Source: Myxococcota bacterium
Lineage (GTDB): Bacteria > Myxococcota_A > UBA9160 > SZUA-336
DNA: 64,000 nucleotides
Direction of reading: 5' to 3'
Assembly: GCA_044450765.1 (NCBI GenBank)
Contig: JBIOJK010000003.1
Location: 19,856-83,855, forward strand
In this document: positions 5,966 to 50,389 of the stretch, one piece after another
Numbering within the stretch: the stretch's first letter is position 1
Layout: the number at the start of each line of letters is the position of its first letter
Notes under the pieces: model-generated
Told to the model about the DNA's origin: nothing
Seen by the model: only the letters and a program-made list of their open reading frames with translations
The model's database searches: none
Position numbers and translations under genes: made by a program

Positions 5966-7068
5966 CTCGCAAGATTCCCATGGTCGATCTGGGCGCGCAG
6001 ACGGAGCGACTCTGGCCCGAGCTCGAGAAGGCAGTTCAGAGCGTCCTGCGCTCGGGTCGCTTCATCCTCGGGCCGAACGTAGAGGCATTCGAACGCGAGG
6101 CCGCGAACTTTCTCGGCACGCGCTACGCGGTCGGTGTGGGCTCGGGCACGGACGCGCTCGTGCTCGCTCTGCGCGCGCTCGGCGTCGGTGCGGGCGACGA
6201 AGTGATCGTGCCCTCGTTCACGTTCTTCGCGACCGCGGAGGCGGTGAGCCTCGTCGGCGCGACGCCGGTCTTCGCGGACATCGAGCCGACCACGTTCTGT
6301 CTCGAGCCCGATTCCGTGGCGAAGGCGATCAGTCTGCGCACGCGCGCGATCGTGCCCGTGCATCTCTTCGGTCACCCCGCCGAGATGGACGCGATCGCCG
6401 CGCTCGCGCGCGCGCGCGGGCTCGCGCTGCTCGAGGACGCCGCACAGGCGTTCGGCGCGGTCTACCGCGGGCGCAAGGTCGGCGGGCTGGGGAACGCGGC
6501 GGCCTTCTCCTTCTTCCCGTCGAAGAATCTCGGCGCGTTCGGCGAGGCCGGGCTGATCGCGACCGACGACGCGGCGGTCGCCGACTCGGTGCGCAGCCTG
6601 CGCGCGCACGGCTCGCGCGAGCGCTACGTGCACACGGAGATCGGCTACAACGCGCGGCTCGACGAGATCCAGGCGGCGCTCTTGCGCGTGAAGCTGCCGC
6701 ACGTGGCGGGCTGGAACGACGAGCGACGGCGCGTGGCTGCCGCCTACGATGCGTCACTTTTTGGTGTCACCGGCGTGCGGATCCCGCGCATCGCGCCCGG
6801 CTGCACGCACGTCTTCCACCAGTACACCGTGCGCGTGCCGGCGGAGAAGCGCGCGGCGATCCAGCGCGCGCTCGAGTCAGCCGGCGTCGCGACTCAGGTC
6901 TACTACCCGATTCCGAACCACGCGCTGCCGATGTACGCGGGGGGCGCGCCGTCGTTGCCCGAGACCGAGACGGCCGCGCGCGAAGTGCTCTCGCTGCCGA
7001 TCTTTCCGGAGCTCACCAACGCGGACGCGGCCGAGATCGCGCGCCTGCTGGCGGCCGCGCTGCGCTAG
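5962..7068 (+). CDS. DegT/DnrJ/EryC1/StrS-family PLP-dependent sugar aminotransferase
   Basis: ArnB/WecE-like motifs (FSFFPSKNLGAFGEAG with the Lys, and HQYTVRV). The GTG start overlaps the GT4 stop (GTGA). Confidence 0.85.
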   Translation: MTRKIPMVDLGAQTERLWPELEKAVQSVLRSGRFILGPNVEAFEREAANFLGTRYAVGVGSGTDALVLALRALGVGAGDEVIVPSFTFFATAEAVSLVGATPVFADIEPTTFCLEPDSVAKAISLRTRAIVPVHLFGHPAEMDAIAALARARGLALLEDAAQAFGAVYRGRKVGGLGNAAAFSFFPSKNLGAFGEAGLIATDDAAVADSVRSLRAHGSRERYVHTEIGYNARLDEIQAALLRVKLPHVAGWNDERRRVAAAYDASLFGVTGVRIPRIAPGCTHVFHQYTVRVPAEKRAAIQRALESAGVATQVYYPIPNHALPMYAGGAPSLPETETAAREVLSLPIFPELTNADAAEIARLLAAALR

Positions 7069-8591
7069 CGGCCGCGCGCGGTGACCTGCGGCGGTCTGTT
7101 CGGCCACTTCTGGAAGGTGGCGCGGTGGCGGGCGAGCCCGCGCATCACGACCTCGATGTAGACCAGCTTCCGGATCAGGTAGCTGTGAGTCTCCTTCGGG
7201 TCGAGATACAGGTTGTACAGCCGCCCATAGGGGTACTGCTGCAGCACGCCGGTGAAGCCGCCGGGATTCACGACGTCGGTCGAGTCGTCGGAGATCGACG
7301 TGCTCATGTACTTGTACTCGCCTACGCGGATCGCCGAGAGGTGCAGCGTGAGCCAGTAGTAGTGGAACTTGCGGTTCGAGAGCCCGTCGGGCGCGAGCAG
7401 GAAGCTGGTCTGATCGATCGAGTCGACGAAGCGGTCGCCGGGCACGCGGTCGCCGACACCCGCCAGTGTCAGAAACGTCGCGAACAGATCGAGCTGCGCG
7501 AAGATCCCGTCCGAGGCGCGCGGCTCGATCATTCCCTTCCACGCCATCACGCCCGGCACGCGCACTCCCCCTTCCCAGGTCGAGCCCTTCGCGCAGCGGA
7601 AGGGCGTGAACGCGGCGTCGGGCCAGGTCTCCATCTCGGGGCCGTTGTCCGACGAGACGAACACGAGCGTGTTCTCGAGCTGCCCCGTGCGCTCGAGCGC
7701 GCGCACGAGCCGGCCGACGATGTCGTCGAGCTCGATGATCGTGTCCTTGTACGGGTGCTTCGAGGGTGACTTCCCGCGGAACTTCTCGTGCGGGTAGTTG
7801 TCGAAGTGCGCGCCGCGCGTGCAATGGTACAAGAGCCAGGGCTTTCGCTCGCGACTCATGCGCTCGATGAAGCGCTCGGAGTAACCCGCCCACTCGTCGT
7901 CCAGCCGCGAGAGCACGGGAATCGTGACCTCTTCGACTACCTGCGGCTGGCCGCCGCGCTGCGCGTGCACCCAGCACTTGTTGAACGGCTCGTTCTTGAT
8001 CCAGTTCGTGCGCGCGTCGCTGTAGACGATCTCGGGGAAGAAATACGGGTCGCGCCACTCCGTGTACATATCCGAGACGGAGAGAAAGCCGAAAAAGTCG
8101 TCGAAGCCGACGTTTTGAGGCTGTGACTCGAGGTTTTCGCCCATGTGCCACTTTCCGACGGCCTGGGTCGCGTAGCCCGCGTCGGACAGCAGCTGCGCCA
8201 GAGTCACCTCGCCCGCGAGCCCGCCGGGCATGCCGTACATGGGCGGCACCAGCAGGCCGTGCCTCATCGGCACCCGGCCCGTCATCAGCGAAGCGCGCGA
8301 CGGCGTGCAGGACGGCTCGGAGTAGCACGACGTGAGCAGCAGCCCGTCGCGCGCGAGGCGGTCGATGTGCGGCGTCGGCGCGCCGGTCATGACTCCGCCG
8401 CCGTAGCAGCCGAAGTCACCCCAGCCGACGTCGTCCATCAGGATCACCAGGAAGTTCGGCTTGCGTCCCGTGCGCCGCTCGAGCTCCGCGAGCTTCGCGT
8501 TCGCCGCCGCGATCTGCGCGGGATGCCGGAACACGGACTCCCGATTCGGCGCCACTTCGACCGTCGGCGCCGTGATCGGGTCGAACTCCAA
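7065..8591 (-). CDS. Cys-type sulfatase (arylsulfatase family). Start uncertain; probably a TTG at 8591.
   Basis: Sulfatase signature I (CTPSRASLMTGR) and signature II (GKWHMG), plus an LVILMDD N-terminal motif. No signal peptide is visible. Confidence 0.75.
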   Translation of the reverse strand: MEFDPITAPTVEVAPNRESVFRHPAQIAAANAKLAELERRTGRKPNFLVILMDDVGWGDFGCYGGGVMTGAPTPHIDRLARDGLLLTSCYSEPSCTPSRASLMTGRVPMRHGLLVPPMYGMPGGLAGEVTLAQLLSDAGYATQAVGKWHMGENLESQPQNVGFDDFFGFLSVSDMYTEWRDPYFFPEIVYSDARTNWIKNEPFNKCWVHAQRGGQPQVVEEVTIPVLSRLDDEWAGYSERFIERMSRERKPWLLYHCTRGAHFDNYPHEKFRGKSPSKHPYKDTIIELDDIVGRLVRALERTGQLENTLVFVSSDNGPEMETWPDAAFTPFRCAKGSTWEGGVRVPGVMAWKGMIEPRASDGIFAQLDLFATFLTLAGVGDRVPGDRFVDSIDQTSFLLAPDGLSNRKFHYYWLTLHLSAIRVGEYKYMSTSISDDSTDVVNPGGFTGVLQQYPYGRLYNLYLDPKETHSYLIRKLVYIEVVMRGLARHRATFQKWPNRPPQVTARGR

Positions 8592-8592
8592 T

Positions 8593-8997
8593 TCAGGCCT
8601 TCTGCGCGTCGACGCGCGCCTGGGCAAATTCGAGCGCTTCGCGCAGCTCGGCGAGCTGTTCGGCAGGCGCCGCGATCCCCGCCGCGTCGAGCGCCTGGGC
8701 CGCGCGCGCGCGGCGCGTCTCGGCTTCGGCCGCGTCGATCTGCTCGGGTGTCTCGGCCGAGGGCGCGAGCACCGTGACACGCTCCTGTGTCACCTCGGCG
8801 AAGCCGCCGGCGATCGCGATGCGACTCGCGCGGCCCGCCGCCGTGTAGCGCACGACGCCCGGCTTCAGCGCGACGAGCAGCGGCGCGTGACCCGGCAGGA
8901 TGCCGAGCTCGCCCTCGCTGCCGGGCGCGACGACCGAGTCGGCCTCGGTCGCGAGCACCGCGCGGCTGGGAGTCACGATCGAGAGCGACAGAGCCAC
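8593..8997 (-). CDS. atpC: ATP synthase F1 epsilon subunit
   Basis: 134 aa with epsilon-like N-terminal beta-sandwich sequence, lying downstream of atpD. Confidence 0.85.
   Translation of the reverse strand: MALSLSIVTPSRAVLATEADSVVAPGSEGELGILPGHAPLLVALKPGVVRYTAAGRASRIAIAGGFAEVTQERVTVLAPSAETPEQIDAAEAETRRARAAQALDAAGIAAPAEQLAELREALEFAQARVDAQKA

Positions 8998-42704: not shown

Positions 42705-42708
<4 letters not shown>
41833..42708 (-). CDS. PpiC-type peptidyl-prolyl isomerase lipoprotein (PrsA/SurA-like)
   Basis: Lipobox (LLAAGC) and a C-terminal parvulin domain (GFHLFRVE). Its ATG overlaps the mfd stop. Confidence 0.75.
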
Positions 42709-46214
<3,506 letters not shown>

Positions 46215-46354
46215 AAGTCGCTCTCCGGCGATTAAATGCGGAAAGGCCCGCCCCCCGAGATGACCCCGGGGGGTGGACGCGTTGCGATTGGGGGACGGAG
46301 TATAGGGAATGTCGGGTCGCGGGCCGCCCCGAAGGCGAAGCCGCGGGCAGCGGC

Positions 46355-46360
46355 TATAAT
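46355..46360 (+). promoter_or_regulatory. Perfect TATAAT -10 hexamer upstream of rplC
   Basis: GGCTATAATG sits 27 nt upstream of the rplC ATG in otherwise very GC-rich DNA. No good -35 was found. Confidence 0.35.
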
Positions 46361-46387
46361 GCGCCCCCCCTCCGCGAAGGATCCGCC

Positions 46388-47026
46388 ATGAGCCTGGAAT
46401 TGATCGGCCGGAAGCTCGGCATGACCCAGATCTTCACCGACTCCGGCGACCGCGTGCCGGTCACCGTGATCGAGGCCGGCCCCTGCACCGTCGTGCAGAA
46501 GAAGTCGGACGAGACGGACGGTTACTGCGCGCTGCAGCTCGGCTTCGCGGAGAAGAAGGCCAAGCACACGCCCAAAGCCATGCAGGGTCACTTCGCCAAG
46601 GCCAAGACCACCGCGAAGCGCGTGCTGGTCGAGGTTGCGGTCGAGGCGAAGGAGCTCGCGAGCTACGAGGTCGGCCAGCAGGTCACCTGCGAGGGTTACA
46701 AGCCCGGCGAGTTCGTCGACGTCACCGGCACGACCAAGGGCCGCGGCTTCACGGGCGTCGTGAAGCGGCACGGCTTTCCGACGCGCAGTGACACGCACGG
46801 CAACCACGAGTCGTTCCGCCACGGCGGTGCGGTCTCGTCCGGCACGTTCCCGGGTCGCATCAAGAAGGGCCTGCGCATGGCGGGTCACTCGGGAAACGCG
46901 CGAGTGACCCAGCTGAATCTGCGGGTCGAGAAGGTCGAGCCGGAGCGGAACCTGATCTATGTGCGCGGCGCGGTGCCCGGGCGCGCCGACGGCTTCATCT
47001 GCATCCGGCCGACGGTGAAGGGCTAG
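46388..47026 (+). CDS. rplC: 50S ribosomal protein L3, stand-alone gene outside an S10 operon
   Basis: 212-aa bona fide L3 (GMTQIF, GYKPGEFVDVTGTTKGRGFTG, MAGHSGN); GAAGGA RBS. Confidence 0.9.
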   Translation: MSLELIGRKLGMTQIFTDSGDRVPVTVIEAGPCTVVQKKSDETDGYCALQLGFAEKKAKHTPKAMQGHFAKAKTTAKRVLVEVAVEAKELASYEVGQQVTCEGYKPGEFVDVTGTTKGRGFTGVVKRHGFPTRSDTHGNHESFRHGGAVSSGTFPGRIKKGLRMAGHSGNARVTQLNLRVEKVEPERNLIYVRGAVPGRADGFICIRPTVKG

Positions 47027-47628
47027 CGCCGACGGCGCGCTACGACCGCAAGGACGCCTTCTACCGGCGCGCCAAGGACGAGGGCCGCCGCTCGCGCGCG
47101 GCCTTCAAGCTCGAGGACCTGCTGCGCCGCGCGCCGTCGCTGGCCCGGAACGCGGCCGTCCTCGATCTCGGCTGCTGGCCCGGCGGGTGGCTCGAAGTCT
47201 TGGCGCAGCGCATCGGTCCCGAGGGCCGCATCGTCGGCGTCGATCTCCAGCCGACCGACCCCGTGGCCGCCGCGCAGGTCCGGATCCTGACGCTCGACAT
47301 GTGCGCGCCCGAGTCACTCGAGCCGATTCGCGCGGCGCTCGGCCGGCCGGCAGACGCCGTCCTGTGCGACGCGTCGCCCAAGCTCACCGGCGTGCGCGAC
47401 GTGGACCTCGCCGCGATCGACGAGATCTACGCTGCGGCCCTCTCGATCGCGCGCGCGCTGCTCCGTCCGCGCGGCTTCCTGATCGTGAAGGGCTTCCCCG
47501 GGCAAGAGAGCGATCTCTTCCGCAAGGAGCTGAAGCGCCACTTCGCCGACGTGCACGAGATCCGCCCCGAGGGCAAGCGCACCACGTCGAAGGAGTTCTA
47601 CTGGGTCGCTTGCCAGCGCCGCGGATGA
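46999..47628 (+). CDS. rlmE: 23S rRNA Um2552 2'-O-methyltransferase RlmE/FtsJ; start unresolved, possibly a CTG at 46999
   Basis: The conserved N-terminus (AFYRRAKDEGRRSRAAFKLEDL...LDLGCWPGGW) lies upstream of the first canonical in-frame start, a TTG at 47200. A CTG at 46999 would give a 209-aa protein. Confidence 0.6.
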   Translation: MHPADGEGLAPTARYDRKDAFYRRAKDEGRRSRAAFKLEDLLRRAPSLARNAAVLDLGCWPGGWLEVLAQRIGPEGRIVGVDLQPTDPVAAAQVRILTLDMCAPESLEPIRAALGRPADAVLCDASPKLTGVRDVDLAAIDEIYAAALSIARALLRPRGFLIVKGFPGQESDLFRKELKRHFADVHEIRPEGKRTTSKEFYWVACQRRG

Positions 47629-47631
47629 CTC

Positions 47632-48330
47632 CTAGAGCTTGAGCCACGCGAAGCCGCTGCGCAGCGCTTCGCGGCCGCCCTTCTCGAGGATCTCGCCGTG
47701 CGCGACGGTGACTCGCTCGAACTCCCAGGCGAGAATCCGGTCGAGCGACGCGCGCGCGCTTCGCCGGTCCTTCAGAACCGCGAAGCGGAAGATGCGCGAG
47801 GGGCCGAAGCGGCCGAAGGCGCCGTTCACGCGCATGAACAGCCGAGTCGGCGCGCTGGCCGACTCGCGCACGTTGAAGCACAGGTCGAGACACAGCAGCG
47901 TGCGGCTCGCCCGGTGCAGGAACACGACCTCGTTCAAGCTCGGAGCGCCGCGCACGAGCAGCTGATCCAGGTCGGCCGCCCAAAGGTCCGGCGCCCGATC
48001 GGCGAGCACCTCGTCCACGCGCACGTCGCCGAGCTTCTCGCGCAGGCCGGGCGCGCCGAAGACGCGCGCGTGCGGGTACGCGGCGATGTTCTCGCGCAGG
48101 AACATGTGATGCAGCAGATTCGGCGCGATCAGAGCGCGCACGGGCCCGAGTGAGTCGATCGCGCGGCGCACATCGTCGTCCAGCGGCCCCGGGGTGTGCA
48201 CGGCGACACCTCCGCCCGAGAGCCGGACCGCACAGCAGCGCGTCCCGAGCTCGAGGCCGCCCGGCAGGCGCAGCGGGTGGTCGATCGCGATCAGGTCGGG
48301 GTGCAGGCGGTGGACGTGGGTCACTGCCAC
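47632..48330 (-). CDS. DUF4336-like protein (metallo-beta-lactamase-like fold); start uncertain
   Basis: C-terminal roughly 230 aa of the 47632..48486 ORF (IAIDHPLRLPGGLELGTR...APNLLHHMF...). Confidence 0.55.
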   Translation of the reverse strand: MAVTHVHRLHPDLIAIDHPLRLPGGLELGTRCCAVRLSGGGVAVHTPGPLDDDVRRAIDSLGPVRALIAPNLLHHMFLRENIAAYPHARVFGAPGLREKLGDVRVDEVLADRAPDLWAADLDQLLVRGAPSLNEVVFLHRASRTLLCLDLCFNVRESASAPTRLFMRVNGAFGRFGPSRIFRFAVLKDRRSARASLDRILAWEFERVTVAHGEILEKGGREALRSGFAWLKL

Positions 48331-48361
48331 GGCTCTTGAAGCTAAGCGTAGAATCGGCGGC

Positions 48362-50389
48362 GTGGAAGAGCGGCAGATCGAGCTCGGATCGGGCGCGACG
48401 CGCATTCGCATCGAGGGCGACGGCCGGCCGCTCGTCTGGACGCACGGCTTCACGAGCTCGATCGAGGCGGAGGATGCGGCCGGCATGAGCGCGCTCTGGC
48501 GCGGCGTGCTCGACCTGCAGCTCGTGCGCTACGACGCGCGCGGTCACGGCCGCTCCGCGCCGGGCCGCGACGAGCCCGCGCAATCCTGGTCGGCGCTCGG
48601 CGCGGACTTGCTCGAGCTCGTGACTGCGCTCGGCCTCGACCGGCCGATCGCCGGCGGCGCCTCGATGGGCACCGCGACCTCGCTGCATGCGGCCGTGCGG
48701 AACCCGGGCGCGTTCAGCGGCCTGCTGCTGGTCCTGCCGCCGACGGCCTGGGAGACGCGCAAGCCGCAAGCCGATCTGTATCGCGGCGGCGCGGCGCTGG
48801 TCGAGGCGCGCGGCGTCGAGGGATACATCGCCGCTGCGCGCGAGGCCTTCCGCACGCGGCCGATGCCCGGCTTCAGCGAAGAGATGCAGGAGCGCGTGAT
48901 CGCGGAGCTGCGCGCGACGAGCGCCGCGGATCTCGTGCGCAATCTCCGCGGCGCGGCGGCGAGTGACTTGCCCGATCCCGCGCGGCTTCGCGAGCTCGAC
49001 GTCCCGGCGCTCGCGATCGCCACGCGCGGCGATCCCGGTCACCCGCTTTCGACCGCGGAGCGGCTGCTCGAGCTCCTGCCGCGCGCCGAACTGGTCGTGC
49101 TCGACGATCTCACTCAGCTCTCGTCGGCGCGCGGCGAGCTGGAGCGCTTCGCGGCTCGCACCGGCGTGCGCGCCCGCGGGCCGAATGTCTCGCCGATCGA
49201 TCTCTACTCGCCCGACCGCTTCGCGAACGGCGCGCCCTACGCGGACTTCGCGCGCCTGCGCCGCGAGCGCCCGGTGCACTGGCAGCCGACGCCGGACGGC
49301 GGCGGATACTGGGCCGTGACGAAGCACGCCGACGTCGCGGCGATCTCGCGCGACCCGGCGACTTACTCGTCTGCGCAGGGCTTCGTCGTGATCGAGCCGC
49401 TCTCGGAGGCGCAGCTGGCGATGATGCGCTTCACCTTACTCGGCATGGACCCGCCCGAGCACGCTCGGCTGCGCCGGCTGTTCCAGAGCGCCTTCACGCC
49501 GCGCATGGTCGCGGCGCTCGAGCCGCGCATTCGCGAGATCTCGCGCGGCATCATGGCGCGCGGAGCAGCGCGCGGCGAAGTCGAGTTCGTCGAGGACATG
49601 GCGGGTGACTTGCCGATGCAAGTGATCGGCGAGCTGCTCGGCGTGCCCGAGGGCGAGCGTGCGCGCCTGCGCGCTTGGGCGGCGCAGCTGACCGGCTCGC
49701 AGGATTCCGATCTCAATCCGGGCGGCGCGGAGGCCGCGCCCGCGGCGTCGATCGAGATGGCCATGTACGCGATCGGGCTCGCGCGGGCGCGCCGCGGCGC
49801 GCCCGGATCCGACCTCACGACCGTCGCCGTGAACGCTGAAGTGGACGGCCACGCGATGACCGACGCGGAGTTCGGCGGCTTCTTCGTCCAGCTCGCGACC
49901 GCCGGCAACGACACGACGCGCAACTTGTTGTCCTCGGGGACGCGCCTCCTGCTCGAGCATCCGGACGCGCTCGCGTCACTGCGCGCGGACGAGTCACTCG
50001 TTCCGAGCGCGGTCGAGGAGATGCTGCGCGTCGAGAGCCCGCTCCACTACTTCCGGCGGACCGCGACGCGGGACGCGAGCCTGCGCGGCCAGGCGATCCG
50101 CAGCGGCGACCGCGTCGTCCTGTACTACGGCGCGGCAAACCGCGACGAAGAGGTCTTTCGCGAGCCCGACCGCTTCGACGTGCGGCGCTCGCCGAACCCG
50201 CATCTGTCGTTCGGCTTCGGCGAGCACTTCTGTCTGGGAGCCGCGCTCGCGCGCCTGGAGGCGCGCGTGTTCTTCGAGGAGCTGCTGCGCGCGTTCCCGC
50301 GCATCGAGCTGGCCGGCGAGCCGCGGCACCAGCGCTCGAATCTGAACAACGCGCTGAAGTCGCTGCCCGTCCGGCTCTACGCGAACTAG
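48362..50389 (+). CDS. Apparent fusion of an alpha/beta-hydrolase (N-terminal, about 270 aa) and a cytochrome P450 (C-terminal, about 400 aa)
   Basis: Continuous frame. The hydrolase has an HG box (WTHGF), a nucleophile elbow (GASMG) and Asp/His (RGDPGHP). The P450 has EMLR and FGFGEHFCLGAALA. Confidence 0.65.
   Translation: MEERQIELGSGATRIRIEGDGRPLVWTHGFTSSIEAEDAAGMSALWRGVLDLQLVRYDARGHGRSAPGRDEPAQSWSALGADLLELVTALGLDRPIAGGASMGTATSLHAAVRNPGAFSGLLLVLPPTAWETRKPQADLYRGGAALVEARGVEGYIAAAREAFRTRPMPGFSEEMQERVIAELRATSAADLVRNLRGAAASDLPDPARLRELDVPALAIATRGDPGHPLSTAERLLELLPRAELVVLDDLTQLSSARGELERFAARTGVRARGPNVSPIDLYSPDRFANGAPYADFARLRRERPVHWQPTPDGGGYWAVTKHADVAAISRDPATYSSAQGFVVIEPLSEAQLAMMRFTLLGMDPPEHARLRRLFQSAFTPRMVAALEPRIREISRGIMARGAARGEVEFVEDMAGDLPMQVIGELLGVPEGERARLRAWAAQLTGSQDSDLNPGGAEAAPAASIEMAMYAIGLARARRGAPGSDLTTVAVNAEVDGHAMTDAEFGGFFVQLATAGNDTTRNLLSSGTRLLLEHPDALASLRADESLVPSAVEEMLRVESPLHYFRRTATRDASLRGQAIRSGDRVVLYYGAANRDEEVFREPDRFDVRRSPNPHLSFGFGEHFCLGAALARLEARVFFEELLRAFPRIELAGEPRHQRSNLNNALKSLPVRLYAN

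Follow-up and report, generated by a model that had tools for sequence, protein, structure and literature searches.

We examined the rplC-rlmE locus within a 64,000-nucleotide (nt) stretch of DNA from a Myxococcota bacterium (GTDB lineage Bacteria; Myxococcota_A; UBA9160; SZUA-336; GenBank assembly GCA_044450765.1, contig JBIOJK010000003.1, positions 19,856 to 83,855 of the forward strand). This whole stretch is referred to as the window, and all coordinates are positions within it. At the locus, rplC, which encodes ribosomal protein L3, and a gene for an FtsJ-family 2'-O-methyltransferase, here called rlmE-like (rlmE for short), form a two-gene unit, with a divergent mfd gene on one side and a convergent DUF4336 gene on the other. 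The rlmE-like gene has no canonical start codon ahead of its conserved N-terminus, and comparison with related loci points to an ACG codon, 5 nt beyond the rplC stop, as its very probable start position. The features on which the argument turns are listed below; lengths of products are given in amino acids (aa).

46376-46381, plus strand: Shine-Dalgarno (SD)-like GAAGGA of rplC, 6 nt 5' of the rplC ATG
46388..47026, plus strand: rplC, ribosomal protein L3, the upstream partner; 212 aa plus a TAG stop
46999..47001, plus strand: in-frame CTG, the start proposed in the initial annotation and in the NCBI annotation MFI5314306.1; judged not to be a conserved start
47017..47022, plus strand: GAAGGG, a modest SD-like sequence from the last rplC codons, 9 nt 5' of the ACG
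47024-47026, plus strand: rplC stop TAG, in the frame with position modulo 3 equal to 2
47027..47031, plus strand: spacer CGCCG between the rplC stop and the proposed start, 5 nt
47032..47034, plus strand: ACG, the proposed rlmE initiation codon, 5 nt after the rplC stop and with no rplC overlap
47032..47628, plus strand: rlmE-like gene as re-delimited here, FtsJ-family 2'-O-methyltransferase; 198 aa plus a TGA stop
47107-47109, plus strand: catalytic Lys codon AAG (AAFK-L), placed by alignment to 1EIZ, FTSJ1 and MRM2
47161-47190, plus strand: S-adenosylmethionine (SAM)-binding motif I, LDLGCWPGGW, placed by translation and structure alignment
47200..47202, plus strand: TTG, the first canonical in-frame codon, giving a 142-aa product; judged not to be a functional start

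The rplC product matched the bacterial L3 model TIGR03625 (L3_bact) over the full model length, at 253.2 bits against a cut-off of 142.9. The product of the downstream gene matched Pfam FtsJ (PF01728) at 135.6 bits (cut-off 24.1) across profile positions 2-179 of 181. Alignment with FTSJ1, MRM2 and E. coli FtsJ (1EIZ) showed that the K-D-K-E columns (AFK-L, cDasPk, vK-f and SkE) are conserved, as is DLGcwPGgW of motif I. By alignment to 1EIZ, the Lys encoded at 47107-47109 is the equivalent of E. coli K38, the catalytic residue of FtsJ, and the functions of the K-D-K-E residues and of motif I in this product are taken to be those known for FtsJ. RlmE is the best-matching family, even though the equivalog cut-offs of TIGR00438 and NF008390 were not reached (148.9 bits against 300.15 and 104.8 against 269). 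Specificity for U2552 of 23S rRNA is therefore only presumed, and the cautious name rlmE-like is preferred.

Absence of a canonical start codon

The rlmE frame (position modulo 3 equal to 1) is closed by a TGA at 46789-46791, open from 46792, and ends with the TGA at 47626-47628. The first ATG, GTG or TTG after the upstream TGA is the TTG at 47200. The initial annotation had described this gap and had placed both the conserved N-terminus and motif I upstream of the TTG, and all of its coordinates were confirmed, with the catalytic Lys encoded at 47107-47109 and LDLGCWPGGW at 47161-47190. A product begun at TTG 47200 would be inactive because the catalytic Lys and motif I both lie upstream, and this TTG is not conserved as a start among relatives. 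We also noted strong complementarity to the anti-SD sequence before TTG 47200 (GGCGGGTGG, -9.3 kcal/mol, window 47178-47202), which lies within the motif I coding sequence and may have arisen by chance as an internal ribosome-binding site.

On its own, a stretch of 56 codons that lacks ATG, GTG and TTG would not be unusual, with a rough chance estimate of about 5%; the part that is not due to chance is that a conserved, essential N-terminus has no start. In a codon-usage scan of all open reading frames (ORFs) in the window, rlmE alone had a strong coding signal 5' of its first canonical start (score 39.8). The idea that odd start codons are used genome-wide was set aside on the same scan, which covered the 64 kb of the window and flagged rlmE only. 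The runner-up among upstream coding-like signals (score 24, window 7414-7797, plus strand) is antisense to a long minus-strand gene at 7065-8789 and is probably a shadow ORF.

The missing start might be a sequencing or assembly indel, or the gene might have lost its N-terminus and be a pseudogene whose expression, if any, starts at TTG 47200; the initial annotation had listed an indel and a truncated pseudogene. In their favour is only that this one window shows no canonical start. However, the same junction architecture was found in dozens of independent assemblies from different samples, and a sequencing or assembly error is therefore ruled out. Over the 55 codons at 47035-47199, the ratio of nonsynonymous to synonymous polymorphism (pN/pS) is 0.20 in the rlmE frame compared with 1.9 and 2.5 in the other two frames, and among 22 non-redundant close relatives the variable sites in these codons number 15, 12 and 46 at the first, second and third codon position. 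The value of 0.86 obtained downstream of the TTG is an artefact of fixed offsets across indels and should be disregarded. The purifying selection on the N-terminus rules out a truncated pseudogene, and a pseudogene product begun at TTG 47200 would moreover lack the catalytic Lys and motif I and depend on a codon that is not conserved. Error and pseudogene together retain a close to negligible probability, and the pattern of constraint indicates that the rlmE N-terminus upstream of TTG 47200 is translated.

A protein search returned 2951 homologues at an E-value of at most 1e-10, of which the best 120 clusters were inspected. Calls in 97 of these 120 clusters are N-terminally truncated, starting at LRRAP, VLDLG, VYKL and similar sequences; six carry an arbitrary upstream extension, with Thr where Met is expected, and 17 start with a normal M or V. 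The truncated database entries (within P0002-P0120) are 131-194 aa long and are missing the catalytic Lys, SAM motif I or both. Gene callers thus err systematically in this clade. At the DNA level, we compared at least 115 related loci from genome and metagenome collections, taken from among the matches listed and numbered L001 onwards. In 57 of 115 loci rplC lies within 200 nt upstream of rlmE, usually with mfd on the minus strand ahead of the plus-strand pair, and 50 of these 57 have no ATG, GTG or TTG before the conserved N-terminus.

An ACG codon at the expected start position

The residues T-A-R-Y of the window align without gaps with M-A-R-Y or V-A-R-Y, encoded with ATG or GTG, in relatives. 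In relatives not preceded by rplC the protein begins M-A-R-Y, and the ATG stands exactly 9 nt before the conserved Tyr codon. Homology with solved FtsJ-family structures begins at YDRKD, which is residue 4 counted from ACG 47032, and position 1 of the rrmJ model maps to 47053. A codon-usage model trained on the window places the onset of the coding signal at 47035, one codon past the ACG.

The start position is occupied by ACG in 30 loci, which together make up 21 of 21 distinct ACG-type junctions and about six deep lineages; ACC, ACA and ACT never occur there. Sixteen of the 21 junctions belong to a close clade with at least 73% protein identity, and the other five (L105, L110, L112, L113 and L115) to lineages at 53-62%. 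ACG makes up 46% of the Thr codons in the window, and the adjacent Ala and Arg codons, unlike the invariant ACG, differ at their third position between relatives. This pattern suggests that what is conserved at 47032 is the codon and not the amino acid.

The sequence 5' of the ACG is unrelated between lineages, and the sequence 3' of it is conserved. Spacer indels of 1-2 nt end at the ACG, while the ACG and everything downstream stay in register. The distance from the rplC stop to the ACG is 3, 4, 5, 7, 10 or 13 nt in ACG-type relatives, and the relative frame of rplC and rlmE is therefore not conserved. Some relatives have very little room for an upstream start: in L006 it is the rplC stop, 6 nt ahead of the ACG, that closes the rlmE frame, which opens 12 nt before the conserved Tyr, and in L052 and L053 the frame is shut 15-18 nt before the ACG. 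An N-terminal extension from a GTG at -558, seen in some relatives, was considered and rejected; it is not conserved, and stops block it in the window and in others. Taken with the alignments, these observations make ACG 47032 very probably the rlmE start position.

The initial annotation had proposed instead that translation begins at CTG 46999, within rplC, so that the genes would overlap by 28 nt and the protein would have 209 aa. A product begun there would carry the N-terminal peptide MHPADGEGLAPTAR. This CTG is indeed in frame, with the length and overlap claimed for it; CTG is accepted as a rare start in translation table 11, and the NCBI model MFI5314306.1 (P0001, 209 aa, beginning MHPADGEGLAPTARY) uses it. 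As a conserved start, though, it failed. It was found in only two of 17 aligned ACG-type relatives, the window and L003, and in-frame stops intervene before the N-terminus in L005, L006, L008, L052 and L053. The 11 residues that it would add show no conservation, the coding signal sets in only at 47035, and anti-SD pairing is poor (-2.1 kcal/mol). Comparison of the orthologous junctions, a check that the initial annotation had itself put forward, thus points to ACG 47032 over the CTG, and translation from CTG 46999 appears quite improbable. NCBI translation table 11 does not, to our knowledge, list ACG as a start, and this would explain why PGAP chose the CTG and why other callers truncated rlmE.

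Proposed coupling to rplC termination and competing explanations

Comparison of the related loci established where constraint begins, that the ACG does not vary among ACG-type junctions, and that non-canonical starts occur only at short distances behind rplC. For the spacing tests, loci with rplC upstream were grouped into lineage or junction classes. In the 15 classes with non-canonical starts, which cover all 50 loci without a canonical start, the stop-to-start distance ranges from -4 to +13 nt, compared with 8, 13, 16, 33, 47, 93 and 123 nt in the seven classes with a canonical ATG or GTG behind rplC (Mann-Whitney p = 0.0003, Fisher p = 0.0008). All loci without rplC directly upstream start with ATG, GTG or TTG. 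In the L019 lineage, unrelated genes spanning about 2.3 kb separate rplC from rlmE, whose start is a normal ATG, and a masked run of N follows directly 3' of rplC (L019 about 650-760). The restriction of non-canonical starts to spacers of at most 13 nt fits termination-reinitiation coupling.

Coupling is well documented for ribosomal protein operons (PMC12548453). In coupled pairs both genes point the same way and the start lies at roughly -8 to +10 nt from the stop, and in reporter experiments reinitiation drops steeply past about 14-20 nt (PMC10666635); the window, at +5 nt, lies within the range. The classic -4 geometry of coupled genes, in which a CTG overlaps the rplC TGA (cTGA), was found in L002-type and L042-type loci and in L058. 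No promoter-like or terminator-like site was found between rplC and rlmE. The rplC stop is TAG at 16 of 16 distinct close-clade ACG junctions.

These observations suggest the following series of events. Ribosomes translating rplC would terminate at UAG 47024-47026, and rlmE translation would restart 5 nt further on, at ACG 47032-47034, where relatives have AUG or GUG. The initiator tRNA would presumably pair with the ACG through a central C·A mismatch, giving a 198-aa product that starts (f)Met-Ala-Arg-Tyr. Because ACG initiation is intrinsically weak, the codon would most likely be supplied by post-termination ribosomes coming from the heavily translated rplC, which is a plausible way of making an ACG usable. 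The result would be a small amount of methyltransferase, proportional to L3 synthesis, with a large fixed step-down from L3, which is abundant and structural, to the catalytic RlmE. We infer from the comparisons that fMet-tRNA would decode the ACG, that initiation would depend on rplC termination and that the purpose would be low, coupled expression; that ribosomes terminate at the rplC UAG and reinitiate at ACG 47032 is, taken as a whole, the mechanism that we consider probable. Among the three alternatives raised in the initial annotation, the comparative data thus favour non-AUG initiation coupled to L3, with a codon other than the CTG named there.

It is also possible that ACG 47032 is started by ordinary, independent 30S initiation, placed by the AAGGG upstream of it, and that the weak codon simply sets low expression. 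Throughout the close clade, AAGG(G) stands 7-10 nt 5' of the ACG, and its pairing (-4.2 to -6.0 kcal/mol) is as good as that of the SD of rplC itself (-5.5 kcal/mol). The rplC stop has shifted upstream in L053 and L052, and the sequence persists there as non-coding AAGGGC and AGGGGC, respectively; ACG, moreover, works from an ordinary ribosome-binding site in E. coli reporters. On the other hand, 29% of random 17-mers pair as well as this sequence, and the distant ACG lineages L110 and L113 lack it; the evidence for an SD-like role is weak for these two reasons. Independent initiation also does not account for non-canonical starts being found only at spacers of at most 13 nt, when canonical starts occur at all distances. 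An SD-driven start was accordingly rejected as the main determinant, with pairing that is modest and not conserved beyond the close clade; AAGG(G) is at most a contributor, and independent initiation seems unlikely.

Recoding at the rplC stop was a further candidate, in which RlmE would be made as a C-terminal extension of L3 by -1 frameshifting, bypass or readthrough. Relative to rplC, the rlmE frame of the window is -1, and it stays open across the junction; the GGC UAG there has a take-off-like arrangement which superficially resembles that of T4 gene 60. However, the spacers of 3, 4, 5, 7, 10 and 13 nt produce all three frame relations, the last rplC codon varies (GGC, GAC, GTC, GAA, GGA or GGT) and there is no slippery motif. 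In L052 and L053 an rlmE-frame stop stands just upstream of the rplC stop. Neither a conserved frame relation nor a conserved slippery or take-off site was therefore present. A -1 slip of tRNA-Gly on A-AGG-GCU-AG and a gene-60-like hop from GGC-UAG to a downstream GGC were both dropped in view of the variable last codon and frame relation and of the landing codon, GGC 47034-47036, which is out of the rlmE frame. An L3-RlmE fusion is extremely unlikely.

We also looked for structured or special RNA elements. A junction hairpin picked out by eye (AGCGC-cgACGgc-GCGCT or GCGCC-gac-GGCGC) was rejected; RNAalifold, run on 19 junctions, detected no covariation at an energy of -2.6 kcal/mol, and folding of the single junction sequence had a z-score of 0.35. 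Rfam returned no match over 46100-47700 at E-values up to 1, and the window holds no tRNA genes that could supply a special tRNA nearby.

These results also bear on RNA editing. A C-to-U edit of the mRNA at 47033 would turn ACG into AUG and, at the same position in other loci, GCG into GUG, so that a canonical start would exist that is invisible in the DNA. The locus has an ACG where relatives have AUG, as an edited site would; a single edit at one position would make both ACG-type and GCG-type junctions canonical, would account for the otherwise puzzling L045-type described below, and could act on the ACG at -6 in L042-type loci, and the creation of AUG starts from ACG occurs in plant organelles. 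Against this, the matches in our literature searches were from plant organelles or viruses only, with no bacterial precedent, and there is no conserved upstream guide, the spacers and L3 C-termini being unrelated between ACG lineages. The folding results (alifold -2.6 kcal/mol without covariation, z-score 0.35) likewise speak against a structural guide, editing leaves L036 (GTC) and L058 unexplained, and only rlmE is anomalous within the window. We consider editing highly unlikely because our searches turned up neither a bacterial precedent nor a conserved cis-element. If true, it would be, in this uncultivated Myxococcota lineage, the first site-specific bacterial C-to-U mRNA editing that creates a start codon.

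Several points weigh against reinitiation at the ACG as set out above. One is a subclade nested within the close clade, which has GCG and not ACG at the start position. In five loci of this subclade (L002-type) a CTG overlapping the TGA offers an alternative start. The L045-type junction, GGC TAG CCGCC GCG GCG CGC TAC, by contrast, has no codon with a single mismatch to AUG in frame within 240 nt upstream. It represents one species-level population (six contigs from at least five samples), and its N-terminus is under purifying selection, with 14-16 synonymous and two non-synonymous codon differences from L002-type. A simple near-cognate model does not explain L045-type. Three readings of it are possible: initiation at GCG, which is related to GUG as ACG is to AUG; a restart by un-recycled ribosomes that is independent of the start codon; or C-to-U editing, which would make ACG and GCG both canonical. 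Restart without a start codon by un-recycled ribosomes has been described under ribosome recycling factor deficiency.

Other points also weigh against the reinitiation mechanism. A short rplC-rlmE spacer is necessary for a non-canonical start but does not suffice, given that ATG is used in two lineages whose spacers measure 8 and 13 nt. The SD-like sequence is modest, owes its existence in part to the L3 Lys-Gly codons, and does not occur in the distant ACG lineages. The loci compared were those among the matches listed in the collection scans, and the entire case is drawn from comparison of sequences. In a rough neighbour-joining tree, ACG lineages are interspersed with ATG and GTG lineages, which indicates that the start state has switched several times; the tree has no support values, and the number and direction of ACG/ATG switches are therefore uncertain. 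An argument that a weak start is selected, because no member of the close clade goes back to ATG, was dropped when the wider census interspersed ATG and GTG lineages with ACG lineages.

Other start arrangements were seen in more distant lineages that have rplC directly upstream and likewise no canonical rlmE start. L042, L079, L084, L086 and L089 have a CTG over the rplC TGA, followed by ATC and ACG codons, and L058 has a CTG over the TGA followed by a poly-proline N-terminus. L036 and L064 have GTA over TAG, with GTC at the start position.

Related systems, significance and gene neighbourhood

Known examples of termination-reinitiation include E. coli rplK-rplA, galT-galK at +3 nt and NTGA overlaps (reviewed in PMC12548453; distance in PMC10666635). 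The rplC-rlmE pair resembles them: its genes run in the same direction, 5 nt separate the stop from the proposed start, and the upstream gene encodes a highly translated ribosomal protein. Its non-canonical state also occurs only at 13 nt or less, which matches the measured distance dependence, and sister lineages have the -4 cTGA arrangement. It differs in that the rlmE start would be ACG (CTG, ATC, GTC or GCG in other lineages) and not ATG, GTG or TTG, and in that its dependence on upstream translation is here a prediction from sequence comparison.

A second comparison is with infC, where the conserved non-canonical starts AUU and AUC serve low or regulated expression and are discriminated against by initiation factor 3 (IF3) (PMC5499595). 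As in infC, a codon other than AUG, GUG or UUG is kept at the rlmE start across orthologues, and weak translation and sensitivity to IF3 would be expected. However, the mismatch is at the middle codon position in rlmE (ACG) and at the third in infC, and no autoregulatory logic is evident for rlmE.

ACG starts are known in eukaryotic and viral mRNAs, for example in adeno-associated virus VP2, Sendai virus C' and Arabidopsis AGAMOUS. In E. coli reporters ACG initiates with an N-terminal Met at about 0.1-1% of the level of AUG (Hecht et al., bioRxiv 10.1101/063800). The proposed rlmE start would share with both the low-efficiency initiator decoding and the N-terminal Met. The eukaryotic cases, though, depend on scanning and Kozak context, and the E. 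coli data come from engineered reporters and not from a natural gene. In plant organelles, C-to-U editing turns ACG into AUG starts in psbL and ndhD (PMC12548569, PMC9891260). The rlmE locus is similar in having a genomic ACG at a conserved AUG position; organelle editing, however, uses PPR-DYW factors that recognise upstream sequence, and rlmE has no conserved upstream element.

In our literature searches we found no natural, conserved bacterial ACG start; ACG was discussed only for reporters, eukaryotes, viruses and organelles. A conserved middle-mismatch ACG start seen only directly behind a ribosomal protein stop was likewise not described in the literature searched. If confirmed, rlmE would provide a natural, evolutionarily conserved bacterial ACG initiation codon. 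Depending on lineage, the same gene pair has ATG, GTG, ACG, GCG, cTGA-CTG or ATC, and the rplC-rlmE series may thus serve as a natural experiment on how termination-reinitiation loosens start-codon choice, with the GCG lineage as the point where present models fail. Through this arrangement, production of a ribosome-assembly enzyme that modifies rRNA would be linked to production of a ribosomal protein that assembles early, with a large built-in step-down in yield. There is also a consequence for annotation, given that most of the best clusters (97 of 120) are truncated and that the NCBI model of this gene uses a non-conserved CTG. The locus is relevant both to specialists in translation initiation and to genome annotators.

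The gene neighbourhood has features of its own. At window 42705-47628, rplC lies outside any S10-type ribosomal protein cluster, with only rlmE beside it and the divergent mfd adjoining. The order of mfd on the minus strand followed by rplC-rlmE on the plus strand is kept across many contigs of Myxococcota metagenome-assembled genomes, including L099, L101, L104, L105, L107, L108 and L115. Further downstream, a 731-aa ORF (window 48194-50389, plus strand) combines an alpha/beta-hydrolase domain (aa 82-304) with a cytochrome P450 domain (aa 544-701), and it runs at its 5' end into the convergent DUF4336 gene (47632-48486, minus strand). This ORF may encode a fusion protein or may be two genes in one frame.

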